Source: a virus (lineage: Duplodnaviria > Caudoviricetes). From it: a stretch of DNA of 54,691 nucleotides. The position numbers and the translations under genes are program-made. Below the pieces are notes generated by a model that saw only the letters and a list, made by a program, of their open reading frames with translations, did no database searches and had not been told where the DNA came from. Each line of letters begins with the position of its first letter. The stretch's first letter is position 1. Of the stretch, positions 5,939-13,513 are shown in pieces. The stretch covers positions 1 to 54,691 of the IMG/VR virus record IMGVR_UViG_3300020044_007012; one strand, written 5' to 3'.

Positions 5939-6853
5939 TTAGACGCCAGCGGTACCGAACACGCCGCGTGGGTCAGTCCAGCCCAGAACGTAACGCTCTG
6001 TGGCCTTGTAACGCATGCTGTCGGTTTCGAAGTCGCCTTCCATGGATTTCTCCAGGCCGCGACGCATCAACAGTTTCAGACCTTCGGGGGCGTCGGTCTG
6101 AATCCACCAGGCTGTGGTGGAGGTGATACGCGAGAGGTTGGCTTGGCCATCGGCCAGCAAGCCCATCGACTTCACAGGGTTGATGTCGTTGTCAGCGGTG
6201 CCTGTACGCAGCACAGACTTCAGCAAAACCTCAGCCTGGAACACGTTGGAAGGACCGGAGACGATCTTCTTGGGTGTCAAGCGAATACGCTTACCGTTGT
6301 TGTCAACAGCGTTGCGGATCTGGATGAGCATCTGCTCCAAGGAGGTCTGCGACAAGGCAGCGGCTGTGGCCAGCTGGTTGCTGAATGTGCCGTTGACGAT
6401 GGGGTGAGCCGTAGAAACCAAGGCCACGCCGTCACCACCGGTGTACGCGCCGTTGAAGGCACGGTTCAGGATGTTGGCTGCCAGAGTCTCTTTGGTCTCG
6501 ATCAGAGACTGCGCCAGGTGCTTGGCGTAGGTCTGACCGATACGGATGTGGTCGCCGTCTTCAACCAAAACTTTGGTCAAAGCGAAGGCCAAGCCGTACA
6601 CCTTGTAGAGGTAGCGCTGCAGGAACAGGACGCCACCGGATTGGTAGGTCACTGCCATGCCGTCAGGCAGCTCAGGCGCAGCACCGAAGCCGTACAAGAC
6701 GGGCTCTTCGTGGTAGTTGCGTGGGATGCCTTTTTGCTCGCGGAACACTTGTTTCCACTCGTCAGCACGTTGCTCATAAACGCCGTCGAACACTTCGTTC
6801 AAGATCGGCTCGACTACGGAACGGAAGTCCGTACTACGCATTGGGGTTGCCAT
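5939..6853 (-). CDS. Major capsid protein (304 aa)
   Basis: Size, position after scaffold and decoration genes, and motifs GFGAAP, DGVAL.S.AHP and EGDFET..MRYKA.ERY..GW.DPRG. Confidence 0.88.
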   Translation of the reverse strand: MATPMRSTDFRSVVEPILNEVFDGVYEQRADEWKQVFREQKGIPRNYHEEPVLYGFGAAPELPDGMAVTYQSGGVLFLQRYLYKVYGLAFALTKVLVEDGDHIRIGQTYAKHLAQSLIETKETLAANILNRAFNGAYTGGDGVALVSTAHPIVNGTFSNQLATAAALSQTSLEQMLIQIRNAVDNNGKRIRLTPKKIVSGPSNVFQAEVLLKSVLRTGTADNDINPVKSMGLLADGQANLSRITSTTAWWIQTDAPEGLKLLMRRGLEKSMEGDFETDSMRYKATERYVLGWTDPRGVFGTAGV

Positions 6854-7503: not shown

Positions 7504-8034
7504 TCAGGTCAGCTCGAACTGAGCGGACCGTCTTTGTCCAATTTCCGTCATGCCATCACCCGCATCCATACGCGAGCCAGAGGCGCGCGCTTGCTGCTCC
7601 ATGAACTCCGCCGTGTCGGTCAGCTTTTCCTCTTCGCGCAACGGCGCGTCGTGGTGAGCTTCCTGCATGTACTTCTCGTACAGGCTGATCGGGAGTTTGA
7701 AAGCGAGCATCTCATTGACGCCGATGAAGCCTTGCCAGTCGCCCGTTTTCACGGTGACATAGTCCCAGCCAGGCACATCGCTTGGCTTCAAAGGCTCATA
7801 ACCCAGACGCATACGCATGTGGATGGAGTCACGAGGGTTCGAGGTGGTCAGCCAGCAGCAATGCCAGCCGTCGAGTTTTGGCAAGTCCGGAAGTGAGGAC
7901 TGGTGGAACTGCTGTCGGAACATTTCAACCCGCTCATCATCGGACAGGGCACGTGATTCGGATACGGCGCGATCTACCATTGCGCGGTTGTCACGGTTGT
8001 CACCAGCGGATTTCTTTAAGCGTTCGTCAGACAT
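7504..8034 (-). CDS. Head-operon hypothetical protein (176 aa)
   Basis: Strong SD; between scaffold and capsid genes. Confidence 0.75.
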   Translation of the reverse strand: MSDERLKKSAGDNRDNRAMVDRAVSESRALSDDERVEMFRQQFHQSSLPDLPKLDGWHCCWLTTSNPRDSIHMRMRLGYEPLKPSDVPGWDYVTVKTGDWQGFIGVNEMLAFKLPISLYEKYMQEAHHDAPLREEEKLTDTAEFMEQQARASGSRMDAGDGMTEIGQRRSAQFELT

Positions 8035-8099
8035 GTCTCGCTCCTTTCAGCGATTGGGAAAAATTATAGGTCGAATTTGGAAAAACACAACGCGATTTT

Positions 8100-9080
8100 T
8101 TACGCGCGGTTGTTGCGGTCATATTCCGCGTAGCGTTTTACGTATTTTGTGCGCAGGACAGGATCGTCCCAAACACCAGCGTCAATCAAGGCCTGCTTGC
8201 GCTCAGGGCTTACATAAACCTCGGTCCGGGTGCTGGTCGGCGCGTGCTCGCGGCCGGAGCCGATTGCTGGGCCGCCGCGTTGTTGGCGCGGAGCTTGCTG
8301 CGACTGCTGGCGTGGGCTGGCCTGTGGCTTGCGGGACTCACCAAATCGCTCGGGCAGACGGCGCGCAGCTCGGTCGCGCAGCTCGTCCCAGTACTCCTCG
8401 GTGTCGGGCTTGAAGCCCTCGCGCACCAAAGCGCCGTCGATGGCCAAAACGATTGCGCTGTCCTCGTCCTTGCCTTGCATGTCATACCAGGGGTTGTCCT
8501 GAATGAACTCCTTGGCGTAGTGCATGGTCATGTCGTCCATGCCTTCGGATTGCTTGGCTGGACGCTGCTGGGCAGCTTGCTGCTTTGCAAACGCCAACTG
8601 TTGCGCTTTTTGCAAGGCTTGGTCGCGGTAGCGCATGGCCTGCGTGACGTCCTCGCCGTTGCCAGCGGCCACAGCCTTGGCGATCACTCGCTCTGCCATC
8701 TCCGCTTCGTTTTTCGCTTGGCTGATCTGCACATCGATCTGCGAGAGGTCGGCTTGGTGCGTGCGCTGCTCCACGGTACCCAGGCGGCGCTCAAGATCGT
8801 CATTGCGCTTGCGCAGGAAGCTCAGCTCCAGCTTGTCGCGGCTGATGGCTTCGTCGCGGCGCTTTTTGCGATCGAGTTTTTCCAGGCGGCGGCGCTCACG
8901 GATTGCCTCGCGCTCGGCATCTGTGCCGTCGCCTTGGTTGCCTTCGTCGTCGTTGCCAGACAGGCGTGCGTCGCCGTCGTCGTCGTTTTCGTCTTGGTTT
9001 TGGTTACCGTTTGGCTGGTCCTCAACGATGACGATTTCTTCGTTGTCGGGCTTGCCGTCGTCTTCGGTCATGAGTGGCAT
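8100..9080 (-). CDS. Putative scaffolding protein (326 aa)
   Basis: Acidic N-terminus, long coiled coil, basic C-terminal helix; position between portal and capsid. Confidence 0.7.
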   Translation of the reverse strand: MPLMTEDDGKPDNEEIVIVEDQPNGNQNQDENDDDGDARLSGNDDEGNQGDGTDAEREAIRERRRLEKLDRKKRRDEAISRDKLELSFLRKRNDDLERRLGTVEQRTHQADLSQIDVQISQAKNEAEMAERVIAKAVAAGNGEDVTQAMRYRDQALQKAQQLAFAKQQAAQQRPAKQSEGMDDMTMHYAKEFIQDNPWYDMQGKDEDSAIVLAIDGALVREGFKPDTEEYWDELRDRAARRLPERFGESRKPQASPRQQSQQAPRQQRGGPAIGSGREHAPTSTRTEVYVSPERKQALIDAGVWDDPVLRTKYVKRYAEYDRNNRA

Positions 9081-9108
9081 GGTCTGCTCCTTTCAGCAGG
9101 GTGGTGGG

Positions 9109-9390
9109 TTAAACGGAGGGATGCTCGCTGAGCTTGCTGCGCAGCTCGTAGCCCATCAAAGGCCAAAGCTCGTGCTTCGCGTTCTCAATGGCAACGCTCT
9201 CGCCGGTGGCGGGAACGTCGTTCAGAGGTGACACGGATGCCGAAGGACGTCCGGTAACCGCAAAACCGTTGCGCGTTGTCAGAACGGCCCAGCGCAGAAC
9301 TTGGCCAGACTTGGAGACGTGCTTGACGATTTCAGTGTGAATAATGTTGGCTTCCAAATCGGCAGGGGTGACGCGTGGTTCAGTGCTCAT
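9109..9390 (-). CDS. N4 Gp49/Sf6 gp66-family protein, Acb4-like nucleotide-signal sponge (93 aa)
   Basis: PRVT..DLEANI, NGFAVTG..SASVSP.N...GESVA.ENA...LWPLMGYEL motifs; ATGA overlap with the upstream gene. Confidence 0.75.
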   Translation of the reverse strand: MSTEPRVTPADLEANIIHTEIVKHVSKSGQVLRWAVLTTRNGFAVTGRPSASVSPLNDVPATGESVAIENAKHELWPLMGYELRSKLSEHPSV

Positions 9391-9875
9391 GATTGAATGC
9401 TCCAGTCCTCGGCCAGCACGTCGTTGACACTGGGTACCCAAGTGCTCACGGTGTTGTCCACGTTTTTGATCGCCATGTAGGCGTTGTATGGGACCATTGC
9501 GCCTTCGCCGAAGTGGCTCTTGGCCGCGCCGGTTTGCACAGGGTAACTGTTGGCGGGGACGTAGTAGACAAACATGCCCTTGCCATTCCAGCCAGCGCGG
9601 GCGACCTTTTGGCCTGCCTTCAGCGCCTCAATGGCTTGGCCAAAGGTCATGCCGTTGCACTTGCGGTAGGCTCGGTCGAACACTTCGGCTGGCGACCAGC
9701 TCAAGTAACCGGCGTAGTGGTCCGTGTTGCCCTTGCCGCCATCCAAGTACTCGACCAGGTAGCCTGCGTCCTCGGGGTTCTCGTCGGCAGGGACAGTCCA
9801 GACACGGAAGGCGTTGTACTCAGCCCGGGTCATGGGCTTGGCGTTGATCAGTTTGGTTCCGATGTAACGTTCCAT
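9387..9875 (-). CDS. DUF2829/Tad2-like sponge fused to an uncharacterised N-terminal domain (162 aa)
   Basis: C-terminal MTFGQAIEALKAGQKVARAGWNGKGMF...WVPSVNDVLAEDW is the DUF2829 signature; ATG at 9875 with GGAGGAG SD. Confidence 0.8.
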   Translation of the reverse strand: MERYIGTKLINAKPMTRAEYNAFRVWTVPADENPEDAGYLVEYLDGGKGNTDHYAGYLSWSPAEVFDRAYRKCNGMTFGQAIEALKAGQKVARAGWNGKGMFVYYVPANSYPVQTGAAKSHFGEGAMVPYNAYMAIKNVDNTVSTWVPSVNDVLAEDWSIQS

Positions 9876-9876
9876 G

Positions 9877-10116
9877 TCAGCTCCTCCAGGTGATTGCTTT
9901 GACAGCCCACATCTGGGCAGTCTGAGCTTCGGTGATGGCGACGCTGGCCATGCGCTTGATTTCGGCGTTTTCCGCCTTTGCGCGCAACAGATCCATGCGG
10001 TCGATGACGGCGGCAAACTCGCGTTTGCAGGCGTCCACATCCGGGTTGTTGCCTGGGTTGAACGTCAGGCCGACGGCCCTCTCGCCGAACGACAGATCGC
10101 GTGTTTCTTCGCTCAT
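9877..10116 (-). CDS. Acb2/Tad1-like helical-hairpin protein, putative sponge (79 aa)
   Basis: C-terminal KRMASVAITEAQTAQMWAVKAIT resembles the Acb2/Tad1 hairpin pattern R..AIA.T..Q...M....A. Confidence 0.65.
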   Translation of the reverse strand: MSEETRDLSFGERAVGLTFNPGNNPDVDACKREFAAVIDRMDLLRAKAENAEIKRMASVAITEAQTAQMWAVKAITWRS

Positions 10117-10126
10117 AACACCCCCG

Positions 10127-10525
10127 TCAGATGAATGCACGGATGGCCAGCGGGTCGCCGGTCACCTGGCCGATGATGTCCAGATCGTTGAAGATCACGA
10201 ACAAAGCGGACTCGCCGTTGGACAGCGAAACTTCCCAGCGATCGCCGCCGTACTTGGGCACGCGAACGTAATCACCAGGTGTGCACCAGCTGCCCTCGGG
10301 CCACGGGTCCATGGTGTTTCGATTCTTGAAGGCGAGGGCACCAACGGAGACGACCCGGGCAACTTGGGTGTTCCACTTTTCAGTGTCCCGTGAGCCGTTG
10401 TCGATGATGATGCCGGAGGCGGTTTTAGTCCGAGGGGTGCGGATTTGCACCAGGACACGGCTTCCAAACGGGGTGATGCCGGGGTCGGCGGTGGGGAACG
10501 CTTCAGCAAACGCGTCTGAGGTCAT
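10127..10525 (-). CDS. groES: Phage co-chaperonin GroES/Cpn10-like protein (132 aa)
   Basis: P.G.RVLV...KTASGII mobile loop, VVSVG, GDYV..PKYGG, ND.DIIG motifs. Confidence 0.85.
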   Translation of the reverse strand: MTSDAFAEAFPTADPGITPFGSRVLVQIRTPRTKTASGIIIDNGSRDTEKWNTQVARVVSVGALAFKNRNTMDPWPEGSWCTPGDYVRVPKYGGDRWEVSLSNGESALFVIFNDLDIIGQVTGDPLAIRAFI

Positions 10526-10632
10526 CTTCTGCTCCTTTCAGCAGGTGTTGTCGGCCGCCACAACGGCTGCCGTCCAATCGGGTCGGTGGCCACAACGGCC
10601 ACCTTCAAAAAATCAGCACAGACCAGTGCAAA

Positions 10633-10830
10633 TCACAGGTCTCGGTCGCCGTGTCGCTCGTCGTCCAGAAGGTCAAGCAGGGCTCTGATGGCAGCTTCGT
10701 ATCCAGCAACCATGCCCACTCGGTATCCGTACTCGAAAGCGTCACGCTCGACCGGGCGCTTGAGGGCTTCAAGCGCAAAGACCTGCTGGTCAGCTTTGAG
10801 CTTTCCGAGCAGGCGATCTTCGATGGCCAT
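10633..10830 (-). CDS. Hypothetical protein (65 aa)
   Basis: In operon downstream of the portal. Confidence 0.7.
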   Translation of the reverse strand: MAIEDRLLGKLKADQQVFALEALKRPVERDAFEYGYRVGMVAGYEAAIRALLDLLDDERHGDRDL

Positions 10831-10968
10831 TTAGCAGGGCGTCTTAGGCATCGAGGGGGCAGCCGGAGTCGTCTGGCCGGTGACGGGCTGGCCAGCGGCC
10901 ATGCGGTGGTGTTGAGGTACCAGGGCCGAATTCAAAGGCACGGTGCTTGATTTGGGTTTGTCGTTCAT
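10831..10968 (-). CDS. Small hypothetical protein (45 aa, MNDKPKSSTVPLNSALVPQHHRMAAG...), not in the ORF track
   Basis: AAGGAG SD; fills the gap exactly between the portal and the next gene. Confidence 0.6.
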   Translation of the reverse strand: MNDKPKSSTVPLNSALVPQHHRMAAGQPVTGQTTPAAPSMPKTPC

Positions 10969-10987
10969 GGGAGGCTCCTTGTGAAAA

Positions 10988-13513
10988 TTAACGTGTGCCG
11001 GGGTTGATGCCGGTGCCGGTGCTTACGGCGACTTTCTCGCCGGAGGCAATCTCTGCCGCTGCCAGGCGCATGGCTGTGGCGTTGTCGTCCGAGTTCATCT
11101 GCAGGCGAGCTGAGATTTCGGCCTCTGTGCGTTGGCTCTCGGCCATCTGGCGAAGCTGCTCGCGCTGCATGTCCTCCGCGCGCGACTGCTGCTTGTCTGC
11201 CAGTCCAGCGGCGTCGGTCTGTGCCTTCTGCACGGCTTTTTGCTGCTCCAGTTGCAGGCGCTGCTGGTCGGTCTGAGCGCGCTGCTGCAGGGCCAGTTGC
11301 TGCACCTGCGCATTGAGCTGCGCAATCTGCATGCTGTTGTCCTGCGGCATCTGGGGCGGCTGGGGTGCAAACTGCTGCGCCATCTCGTCGATCTTGGCCA
11401 ACTCCTGCGCAAACTGCGCCAGCTGCTGCTCGATGATCTGTTGCACGCGCACGATGACCTGGACCTGCTGGCCAGCATCGTCCGTGATCAAGCCCTCGGA
11501 CTCGGCACGCTGCACGGCCTCGTGGGCTTGCGTCAGGTAGAAGTTGAGCAGGTGATCGCGCAGGTGCAACGCCATCGGGTACAAATAGCTTTTGACGATC
11601 GACGGGTTCATGCCAAATATCGGCGACTTCAAGAACGCCAAGTGCGTCTGGATGTGCGCCACGTGGTCCTGCTTGGGAAGCACATAGACCGGGCGGCCCA
11701 TCGATGCGGCCACGTTCTCGCTGACCGGATCGACGTCGTCTTGGCCAGGCTGAGGCTGCAACACATCTTCTGGGTTGAGCTTCAGGTTGCGCAGGAACAT
11801 CTCCTCGACCTTGCGCATGTCGTACATCTGAGGCAGTGTGGCAGCGCGGGACTGCACGGCTTGCACCTGGGCAAAGCGCTGAGCCTCGCTGAAAATGGCC
11901 GGGTCGGACACAGGCACAACGTCCAGCGGACCGTCAAAGTCCTCGGGCTTCACATCCAGGCCGTTTTCCATGGCCTCGATGTCTTCTTCCGTCAGGTACG
12001 CGCTGTTGATTCGGTGCAGGATGCCAAACACGCGGGCCATGCTGCTGTGCAAGCGCGAGTGGATGGAGCTGAAAACCACCATGCCCTGCTCGATGAGCGC
12101 CAGGGTCGTGCCAACCGGGGCGTTGGGGTTTTGGTCGGACAGCTTCTCAAACGAGGTCTGCACCACACCCTTGCCAGCGTCAACCAGGAAGCCAAGCAAA
12201 GAGAACAGCGTGGGGCTTGGGCCGTTAAACGGCAGGGCCATGGCCAGCTTGCGAATGTCGTCGACCAGCGCGCCGCCCTCGATCTCGACCACCTCGGTCG
12301 GCTGCACGTTGATCGTCTGGCCGCCAGGGCCGCCCTTGAGTTTCAAGAGCGTCGGGATGTTTTGGATGTGCGCCGAGTCCAGCAACGCACGCAGCGCGCC
12401 AGTGGCCGCGCCTGACAAGCCGCCGATCATGTGGGTCAGGCCAATCGGGTACGCGCCGCGCCAAGGCACGAACGGGAACTCGACAATCCAGTCCAGCTCC
12501 TTGCGGCGCTTGTCCTCTAGATCCCAGTTGCGGTACAGCGAGAGCGCTTTGCGCGTGGACTTGTCGATGCTGATGATGTACGGCTCCACGCCGTCACCAA
12601 AGTCCAGGTGGGTGTAAATCTCGAAGATGGTCCGCAGGCCGTCCTCGTTGTAGCTGGTGTCCTCGCGGCCCTCGATCTTGTCGTTGGCAATCGTGGCCTT
12701 GCTGAATTCGATCTGATCGGGCGAGCCAATGTCCACCTCGGTGTACATGCCAGCCTTCATGCGGCGGTTGAACTCAAACTTGGTCACGTACTGCACGTGC
12801 GTCTTACGCTCGGCAGAGTAGAAGTTGGTGGCCGCAAACGGCAGGTAAATGTCGTCGATCGCGATGAACTCGGCCATGGGGCGACGCCACTGGGGCGACC
12901 ACATGAGCTTGAGGTACTGACCGCCGCCCAGGGGCAGTTGCGTGGACAGCTGCTCCAGCTCGCCACGGAACTCGGGCATTTGCTGGGTGGTCTGCCAGTT
13001 CATGAACTCCGACTTGCGGCGGGCTTTGTCCAGCTTCTCTGGATCCGCCGCGCCCTGAATCTTGGACTTGACCGGGCCTGAAGGCGGAAACGCCTCTTTC
13101 ATGAATCGGGCGCTGAAATCGACGCAGGCCTCGACCAGCATCGGGTGCACGACTTTGTTGGCTCCGGAGAACTGAGCGCCGCCAGGGGCATCGTCGCCAA
13201 GGCCCGTGCGGCGCAAGCCCTCTTCATAGAGCTTGTCGCGCTTGGATCGGGCTTCCTTGTCGCGCTCGATCTTGTCGAGCAGGTCAACGACCGCGTCGCT
13301 GAGCATGCTGCGATCGACCTCGTCGACGATGTTGGCAAAGTGGGCCTTCTTGTCGGCCACATCGCGGTCGTTCTTCATCCGGACGACAGCGCCGCCGTCT
13401 TCGGTGTCCTCAACGTCCATCTCGTCGTCGTTGGGCATGGAGACGGTTTCGCCTCGCTGCTCATCGTCGCTTGGGTTCTCGTCTTCGCCGTCGTTCAGGA
13501 GTTGGTCAGCCAT
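10988..13513 (-). CDS. Portal protein with long Gln-rich C-terminal coiled-coil barrel (841 aa)
   Basis: HPML.EA...F, G.A.GALR.LLDS, NAPVGTTLALIE.G..V.S.IH.RLH motifs; P22-like C-terminal barrel; downstream of terminase. Confidence 0.88.
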   Translation of the reverse strand: MADQLLNDGEDENPSDDEQRGETVSMPNDDEMDVEDTEDGGAVVRMKNDRDVADKKAHFANIVDEVDRSMLSDAVVDLLDKIERDKEARSKRDKLYEEGLRRTGLGDDAPGGAQFSGANKVVHPMLVEACVDFSARFMKEAFPPSGPVKSKIQGAADPEKLDKARRKSEFMNWQTTQQMPEFRGELEQLSTQLPLGGGQYLKLMWSPQWRRPMAEFIAIDDIYLPFAATNFYSAERKTHVQYVTKFEFNRRMKAGMYTEVDIGSPDQIEFSKATIANDKIEGREDTSYNEDGLRTIFEIYTHLDFGDGVEPYIISIDKSTRKALSLYRNWDLEDKRRKELDWIVEFPFVPWRGAYPIGLTHMIGGLSGAATGALRALLDSAHIQNIPTLLKLKGGPGGQTINVQPTEVVEIEGGALVDDIRKLAMALPFNGPSPTLFSLLGFLVDAGKGVVQTSFEKLSDQNPNAPVGTTLALIEQGMVVFSSIHSRLHSSMARVFGILHRINSAYLTEEDIEAMENGLDVKPEDFDGPLDVVPVSDPAIFSEAQRFAQVQAVQSRAATLPQMYDMRKVEEMFLRNLKLNPEDVLQPQPGQDDVDPVSENVAASMGRPVYVLPKQDHVAHIQTHLAFLKSPIFGMNPSIVKSYLYPMALHLRDHLLNFYLTQAHEAVQRAESEGLITDDAGQQVQVIVRVQQIIEQQLAQFAQELAKIDEMAQQFAPQPPQMPQDNSMQIAQLNAQVQQLALQQRAQTDQQRLQLEQQKAVQKAQTDAAGLADKQQSRAEDMQREQLRQMAESQRTEAEISARLQMNSDDNATAMRLAAAEIASGEKVAVSTGTGINPGTR

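Follow-up and report, generated by a model that had tools for sequence, protein, structure and literature searches.

A protein of 162 amino acids (aa) that carries a Tad2-like sponge domain behind a further N-terminal module is encoded in the Caudoviricetes record IMGVR_UViG_3300020044_007012 of IMG/VR, and this module (the N-domain) is the subject of the present analysis. The whole stretch of DNA analysed (54,691 bp), referred to as the window, is recorded as a complete virus and has direct terminal repeats. The gene for the fusion protein (the N-Tad2 gene) lies between the portal gene and a scaffold-like gene, with the capsid gene farther downstream (Table 1). Three sponge modules follow one another head to tail, namely the Acb2-like gene, the N-Tad2 gene, and the Acb4 gene, and they form a tightly packed three-gene operon. 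The stop codon of the upstream gene (9879-9877) ends 1 nt short of the N-Tad2 ATG, and the N-Tad2 stop overlaps the ATG of the downstream gene (9390-9388) as ATGA. The family matched by this downstream gene, PF13876, is the Acb4 sponge family according to its description (10.1101/2024.12.30.630793). A longer open reading frame (ORF) of 217 aa (9387-10040) was rejected as an over-call, because it overlaps the upstream gene and because GGAGGAG precedes the ATG at 9875.

Table 1. Positions of the N-Tad2 gene, its two modules, and the surrounding genes in the window.
Feature	Position	Strand	Details
N-Tad2 gene	9387..9875	-	162-aa protein; ATG 9875-9873, stop 9389-9387
N-terminal module	9654..9875	-	residues 1-74 of the 162-aa protein; small alpha/beta domain
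Tad2-like sponge domain and stop codon	9387..9653	-	residues 75-162; PF11195 E 3e-27, piece alone
Shine-Dalgarno sequence GGAGGAG	9881..9887	-	5 nt ahead of the ATG at 9875; within the last codons of the upstream gene
Upstream gene, Acb2/Tad1 hairpin	9877..10140	-	87 aa; PF24729 E 4.6e-09, 36.8 bits against a cut-off of 27
Downstream gene, Acb4 family	9109..9390	-	93 aa; PF13876 E 2e-13, 51 bits against a cut-off of 27
Portal gene	10988..13513
Scaffold-like gene	8100..9080
Capsid gene	5939..6853
Cpn10/GroES-like gene	10127..10525	-	132 aa; PF00166 E 2.8e-09, PHROG 3188
ORF just downstream of the portal gene	10633..10830	-	65 aa

The initial annotation had described the piece 9654-9875 as an uncharacterised domain fused to Tad2 and as a candidate fourth anti-defence module. 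By translation on the minus strand this piece is exactly residues 1-74, and all of the motifs that had been quoted for it (YIGTKLINAKPM, DENPEDAGYLVEY, DGG, YLSWSP, VF, and AY) are present. The count of modules also agrees, as the N-domain stands alongside three recognisable ones (the Acb2/Tad1 hairpin, Tad2, and Acb4).

The N-domain as a sequence family and a fold

No Pfam model matched residues 1-74 alone at E≤1, and no NCBIfam model matched at E≤0.1. In particular, neither the Sequestin model (PF21825) nor the Acb4 model (PF13876) matched at E≤1, and the latter instead recognised the separate downstream gene. The Tad2 family model PF11195 was confined to residues 76-160 of the protein (E 1e-26, 93.7 bits against a cut-off of 25, profile positions 1-72 of 73). 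The whole protein is typical of the PHROG 872 or N4 gp49 type, and PHROG 872 itself aligns to residues 1-160 (E 2.7e-64). Three further PHROGs (9467, 32732, and 18865) match the N-domain alone. Two other identities were also rejected. TadIV-1 (T4 vs.3) is reported only in Straboviridae, so it does not fit the distribution of the domain. The Pfam title of PF13876 mentions N4 gp49, which would suggest Acb4; in RefSeq, gp48 is the PF13876 protein, and gp49 is the N-domain followed by Tad2.

The C-terminal half is an ordinary Tad2 by comparison with the solved members (9eib, 8v3e, SPO1 Tad2 8sme/8wje, and HgmTad2 8kbi), whose chains of 88-104 aa all lack the N-domain. Residues 74-160 match ModTad2 (9eib_A, E 2.8e-30) and Tad2 8v3e_E (E 3.3e-30), and this half is far nearer to ModTad2 than to SPO1 Tad2 (E about 1e-16). 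Since ModTad2 and 8v3e are closely similar to it and yet are chains of 88-89 aa with no N-domain, the Tad2 half would not need the N-domain for folding or assembly. ModTad2 is said to bind histidine-ADP-ribose (His-ADPR) of type II Thoeris (PMC13299392). By this likeness, the Tad2 copy of the window may prefer His-ADPR and thus be directed at type II rather than type I Thoeris. The 158-aa AcrIIA7 (9kzr) differs in its N-terminal part, and the N-domain profile described below matched no PDB chain at E≤10.

A profile of the N-domain was built from four sequences, the window piece and three short homologues, and was compared with 1.84 billion representatives. It matched 2,337 of them at E≤0.001, 1,227 at E≤1e-10, and 67 at E≤1e-30, so the family numbers at least 2,337 clusters (50% identity), with members in coliphage N4 and the prototype crAssphage. 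With tblastn, the domain was found in 142 of 50,697 phage records. Partner, position, and conservation counts given below refer to the best 150 of the 2,337 representatives. In the alignment of 150 sequences, Y20, W26, G38, Y57, and W60 are invariant and another 24 positions are at least 90% conserved. The near-invariant residues include K8, R17, Y20, N21, R24-G25-W26, P29, E32, D36, E42, Y43, D45, N50, and Y57. The conservation of the N-domain is far beyond chance. Of these 29 positions the window protein retains 28, the stand-alone copy L060 retains all 29, N4 gp49 25, and gp68 of Pectobacterium phage CB1 14. The nearest clusters in the ESM Atlas were unnamed viral proteins of 67-93 aa with scores of 0.90-0.94, which serve as leads only, and none of the named clusters there scored above 0.80. 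When the PDB was searched with the single sequence, the only match was a weak one to mitoribosomal uL16 (E 0.01 over 36 residues) and was taken as chance.

Residues 1-74 alone, modelled with AlphaFold2 from an alignment of 150 sequences, gave a mean predicted local distance difference test score (pLDDT) of 95.9 and a predicted template modelling score (pTM) of 0.83. The model contains strands b1 (2-5) and b2 (9-14), helix a1 (17-23), strands b3 (38-43) and b4 (57-62), helix a2 (63-69), and a short strand at 71-72. The full-length model (pLDDT 96.0, pTM 0.79) retains the same secondary structure in the N-domain. Two copies of residues 1-74 were predicted to form a homodimer, with a score of 0.68 against 0.01 for the best of three controls; in the calibration of this score, 20 of 30 solved homo-pairs attained the mark, as did 1 of 23 single chains. 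Contact agreement among the runs was at least 95%, and the pLDDT of the partner was at least 87. The contacts predicted with the lowest error are those of residues 2-6 in one copy with residues 9-12 and 70-72 in the other. In the predicted dimer, b1 from one protomer fills a slot of the other that is flanked by b2 and the C-terminal strand, as in the swapped dimer of a published homologue discussed below.

By comparing the model with solved structures, no match at E≤0.001 was obtained with Foldseek against the PDB. With VIA-align against 48,161 chains, the best match was DUF1653 (3be3_B, Z 5.5, root-mean-square deviation 1.8 Å over 54 residues), followed by the Mfd RID domain (6m6a, Z 4.9), CarD (4l5g, Z 4.7), the UvrD/PcrA Tudor domain (Z 3.7-3.9), and Tudor/SH3 domains (Z 3-4), all of which are below the level at which the tool finds a common arrangement (unrelated models typically reach a best Z of 7-8). 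A structural search of BFVD also returned a Yersinia phage RyR protein. DUF1653 (PF07866), like the N-domain, is small and occurs in phages too, and its function is unknown. Kinship between the two found no support in sequence: the N-domain has no Pfam match at E≤1, and hhalign gave a probability of only 0.1 against crAssphage gp36, itself a sub-threshold DUF1653. A search with PF07866 in the window genome and the control genomes also found nothing for a better profile. The crAssphage gene concerned (BK010471.1 gp36, L086:1333-1560) is annotated as DUF1653 with a sub-threshold Pfam E-value of 0.0018, and it lies five genes upstream of gp41, which encodes the N-domain with Acb4.

Fusion partners and stand-alone genes

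The initial annotation had proposed that the fusion partners be listed with a profile of the domain. This gave Tad2, Acb4, Sequestin, the Acb2/Tad1 hairpin, and RyR, besides stand-alone copies. The Pfam scan covered the query and 149 newly listed representatives (P0009 was omitted there and is included in the local counts). A Tad2-like partner was found in 42 of these 150, query included, Sequestin (crAss001_48/PF21825) in 37, Acb4 (PF13876) in 16, the Acb2/Tad1 hairpin in 5, and WDGH, AP2, and HNH_3 in 1 each. In the census with hidden Markov models, the architectures among the best 150 were N-domain plus unknown (39), N-Tad2 (37), N-Sequestin (20), N-domain only (9), and N-RyR (1), and the remaining 44 were rarer double and triple combinations. 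Spot checks with Pfam recovered the N-domain with Sequestin and Acb4 in P0156, with Sequestin in P0163, and with the Acb2/Tad1 hairpin in P0213. In P0155, P0157, P0160, P0162, and P0187, the partner had no significant Pfam family. The same pairings occur in named phages: prototype crAssphage gp41 is N-domain plus Acb4, a protein of Burkholderia phage CSP3 encoded between the portal and capsid genes is N-domain plus Sequestin, and gp68 of Pectobacterium phage CB1 is N-domain plus RyR. In the best 150 of the 2,337 representatives, the domain occupied the N-terminus of 119 proteins and the C-terminus of 11; in another 13 it was internal, and 7 consisted of the domain alone. On the N-domain tree, 31 partner changes were counted on 87 rows compared with 36.1 ± 2.2 for shuffled labels (shuffle minimum 29), the tree being a poorly resolved FastTree phylogeny of about 74 columns. 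Partner-specific subfamilies of the N-domain were therefore not found, and the tree barely tracks the identity of the partner, which argues for a job independent of the partner.

Several architectures were observed in addition. Triple fusions include N-domain, Sequestin, and Acb4 (P0156), N-domain, Tad2, and Sequestin, and Acb4, N-domain, and Sequestin, so that up to three or four anti-signalling modules are placed on a single chain. Many partners are C-terminal pieces of 70-140 aa with no significant Pfam family (P0187, P0189, P0208, P0287, P0155, P0157, P0160, P0162, L058:2962-3522, and L075:3001-3660), and four of the proteins with unrecognised partners form one cluster. By the logic of fusion, these C-terminal pieces are candidate new sponge or anti-defence domains. 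Pairings with WDGH (PF25311, E 1.9e-43), AP2, and an HNH_3 endonuclease were each seen once; in the AP2 and HNH_3 cases, the gene call may have run into an adjacent homing-endonuclease gene.

Two scans of viral contigs gave 154 loci, which were reduced to 123 distinct sequences. These loci were drawn by likeness to the Tad2-linked domain of the window and to the short homologue P0016, so N-Tad2 is over-represented among them with 103 of the 123. N-Sequestin, N-Acb4, N-domain plus unknown, and the N-domain alone were each found at 4 loci, N-Sequestin-Tad2 at 2, and other arrangements at 2. An upstream extension was called at 13 of the 103 N-Tad2 loci, 1 of the 4 N-Acb4 loci, and 1 of the 2 other loci. 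Since an ATG is present at the start of the domain in all 15 cases, these extensions are regarded as an artefact of ORF calling.

The four stand-alone genes (L060, L070, L087, and L107) encode proteins of 73-81 aa. To these is added the cultured Erwinia phage phiEaP8, with a coding sequence of 78 aa for the N-domain only, adjoining the virion RNA polymerase gene. Thus, the domain does occur independently, contrary to what the initial annotation had named as grounds for discarding its proposal. At L087, where the arrangement is the same as in phiEaP8, no sponge gene was detected within 3 kb with five local partner models. L060 and L070 are syntenic sister contigs. In L070 (3001-3500), the N-domain ORF is followed by a separate Tad2 ORF of 87 aa. 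In L060 (3001-3240), the N-domain ORF stands directly before the next gene, and the TAATG junction between them is the one found at the end of the Tad2 ORF in L070. Between the two N-domain genes there are 5 synonymous and 5 non-synonymous changes, with a ratio of non-synonymous to synonymous rates (dN/dS) of 0.24 from too few sites for a firm test. All gene boundaries in both contigs are TAATG or ATGA overlaps, and the Tad2 ORF is precisely present or absent as a clean single-gene cassette. Short homologues of 73-75 aa (P0006, P0014, and P0016) were also found on contigs of 8.4, 1.0, and 22.5 kb, respectively.

These results bear directly on whether the N-domain is an N-terminal extension of the Tad2 fold or an annotation artefact. 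Among the closest relatives, 120 of the 120 listed of 633 matches carry PF11195, as would be expected of an extension; the excess of N-Tad2 in the locus census points the same way, and the pTM of the full-length model would allow a fixed arrangement of the two domains. On the other hand, residues 1-74 have no PF11195 match and fold alone in the model, the domain is fused to four other families and also stands alone, and it is absent from the solved Tad2 chains. We regard this explanation as very improbable, and the partner spectrum, the independent fold, and the stand-alone genes refute it. The N-domain is autonomous and not an integral part of Tad2, and the description of it as uncharacterised and distinct holds, given that it lacks a Pfam or NCBIfam model, folds alone, and has other fusion partners.

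Published relatives and the probable role of the N-domain

Literature searches found one paper that mentions the domain (10.64898/2026.06.04.730250); the supplementary tables of the Acb4, Sequestin, and N4-like hot-spot studies, which may name members, were outside these searches. This preprint concerns gp68, or RyR Tad, of Pectobacterium phage vB_PatP_CB1 (NC_048653; PHROG 18865) and describes its N-domain as a strand-swapped dimer of unknown function. In the crystal, b1 is inserted into the other protomer and completes a five-stranded sheet. The homology of gp68 to the N-domain of the window is supported by BLASTP (36% identity over 69 aa, E 1e-06), and gp68 matches the N-parts of PHROGs 872 and 9467 (about 3.6e-07) as the window protein does; P0002 matches PHROG 18865 at E 0.002. 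Both N-domains stand N-terminal to a sponge, which is a RyR-repeat sponge in gp68 and Tad2 here, and the swapped dimer of the crystal fits the contacts predicted for the window N-domain. The structure of gp68 was absent from the PDB searched, so the homodimer prediction is unlikely to derive from that structure. However, gp68 is a divergent member. The 15 conserved positions it does not retain include R17, N21, R24-G25-W26, P29, E32, D36, E42, D45, and N50.

A nearer relative in build is gp49 of Escherichia phage N4 (YP_950527, 160 aa; PHROG 872), in which the N-domain is followed by a Tad2-like domain at 83-159 (E 8e-24). It adjoins the Acb4 gene gp48 (PF13876, E 8.8e-35), just as the window gene adjoins Acb4. 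The order of the genes is reversed there, with Acb4 first, and the locus is beside the virion RNA polymerase gene and not the portal and scaffold genes. In the literature searches, no test of the gp49 N-domain was found. Another comparison is offered by Sequestin (PF21825), a small phage domain which, according to its description, was noticed by its fusion to Tad2 and Acb4 and was later proven to be a sponge (10.1101/2025.07.12.664507). The N-domain shows the same kind of association with sponges, and a broader one. The two differ in fold, since Sequestin is reported in the same source to be all-helical and to bind 3'-cyclic ADP-ribose (3'cADPR), whereas the N-domain model is a beta-rich barrel of four strands and two short helices. 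Because the N-domain has no Pfam model, it would have been invisible to the Pfam-based fusion screen in which Sequestin was found. Sponges are characterised there as homo-oligomers formed by short proteins or domains of under about 100 aa; the N-domain has 74 aa and is predicted here to be a homodimer.

We hypothesize that the N-domain is an autonomous small-molecule binder with a target of its own, and we give this a probability of roughly 40%. Phages would use it as they use the other sponges that they combine as cassettes, in the form of the homodimer with exchanged b1 strands predicted above. The putative ligand would be held by the near-invariant polar and aromatic residues already listed, and the likeliest target would be a small-molecule immune signal other than the glycocyclic ADP-ribose (gcADPR) of type I Thoeris; both the existence and the identity of this ligand we infer. 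A target of its own is favoured because stand-alone genes exist, including one with no sponge detected nearby, and because the Tad2 ORF can be present or absent as a clean cassette while the N-domain gene beside it stays unchanged. It is further favoured because the domain takes any position in fusions, because there are no partner-specific clades (though on a weak tree), because the Tad2 half resembles solved chains that have no N-domain, and because so many polar residues are near-invariant.

Several results weigh against such a binder. In the preprint, the N-domain of gp68 (gp68_N, residues 1-86) has no apparent activity against type I Thoeris and the RyR half suffices, while the visible role of the N-domain in the crystal is dimerisation (10.64898/2026.06.04.730250). 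Neither Foldseek nor VIA-align found a resemblance to any nucleotide-binding fold. Conserved positions are about as frequent inside the predicted interface (15 of 37 residues) as outside it (14 of 37), so there is no enrichment where sponge pockets usually sit. Stand-alone copies are rarer than fused ones, at 4 of the 123 distinct loci and 7 of the best 150 representatives, and the tree on which partner changes were counted is poorly resolved. Of the proposal of a candidate fourth anti-defence module, the separate, uncharacterised, and sponge-linked domain stands, and the domain is a good candidate for a further anti-defence function, although the only homologue tested at the bench was inactive. 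Type I Thoeris is the only defence system reported for the split gp68 N-domain (10.64898/2026.06.04.730250). Since gp68 retains 14 of the 29 conserved positions and the window protein 28, this negative result transfers poorly; the sole published test was made with a member that lacks half of the conserved residues.

The same crystal suggests a second explanation, in which the N-domain has no target of its own and is purely an accessory handle whose strand-swap dimerisation raises valency, cross-links sponge oligomers, or stabilises the attached sponge. Both domains of RyR Tad mediate dimerisation in the crystal, and gp68_C works alone while gp68_N is inactive, according to the preprint (10.64898/2026.06.04.730250). 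The confident prediction of a homodimer fits, as does the fact that the domain is mostly fused, and a generic service would explain how it rides on five unrelated sponge folds with no partner-specific clades. Moreover, the partners identified so far are all homo-oligomers of even order according to the Sequestin study (10.1101/2025.07.12.664507). However, a handle would be useless as a separate gene, and yet stand-alone ORFs exist, both in a cultured phage with no sponge detected within 3 kb by the five local partner models and in L060, the sister contig of which carries Tad2 in an ORF of its own. Tad2, Acb4, and Acb2 also assemble in the absence of the N-domain. In addition, 29 of the 74 positions are at least 90% conserved, and many of them are polar residues of the exposed type (R17, N21, E32, D36, and N50) outside the predicted interface, whereas gp68, in which only dimerisation was seen, has lost 15 of the 29. 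The handle is the main rival of the own-target binder and only slightly less probable, though we would not expect it to prove right. If it were the whole role of the domain, it would mean that sponge valency itself is under selection.

A third possibility is that the N-domain is a small SH3/Tudor-like barrel that acts as an adaptor and binds a protein, either of the host immune system (a sensor, an effector, or a guard that senses sponges) or of the phage. Its weak structural neighbours (Mfd RID, CarD, the UvrD/PcrA Tudor domain, and Tudor/SH3) are protein-binding barrels. Proteins that bind ThsB or ThsA directly, from Tad3 to Tad8, are an established anti-Thoeris class (PMC13728456), and the stand-alone genes would fit an adaptor as well as a sponge. 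However, the Z-scores of these neighbours are all under the common-arrangement level of the tool, no partner is known, and the company of the domain consists exclusively of signal sponges and not of protein inhibitors, which points to small-molecule biology. An adaptor therefore seems unlikely to us. What probability remains beyond these four explanations goes to something else.

Returning to a small-molecule binder with its own target, we suggest, still more tentatively, that the N-domain is the first representative of a new family of phage proteins that bind immune signals, one that is very widespread, forms strand-swapped dimers, and is directed at a ligand that the companion sponges do not cover. 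If so, the N-domain would mark sponge genes, and its many unrecognised partners, including the 39 proteins with N-domain plus unknown among the best 150, would be a list of further new sponge families. Sponges are a fast-growing class, and each new family has shown which alarm nucleotides matter in nature. The N-domain is as common as the named sponge families, travels with five of them, and is present in N4 and crAssphage while lacking a Pfam model. If it binds an immune signal or an immune protein, a major anti-defence family would be added, together with a handle for searching for others.

The insert between the portal and scaffold-like genes

The insert that carries the sponge operon contains two further genes (Table 1). 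The first, just downstream of the portal gene, is the 65-aa ORF, which has no Pfam, PHROG, or NCBIfam match. The second, the Cpn10/GroES-like gene, is placed between the sponge operon and the portal gene. A megablast search of 8000-12000 against the phage collection gave no match. The slot between the portal gene and the scaffold or capsid gene is occupied in other phages too: Acb4 and N-Tad2 are placed there in L066 (232-4659), and N-Sequestin in Burkholderia phage CSP3 (L085). Sponge genes appear to have been inserted at this site repeatedly in this phage group.

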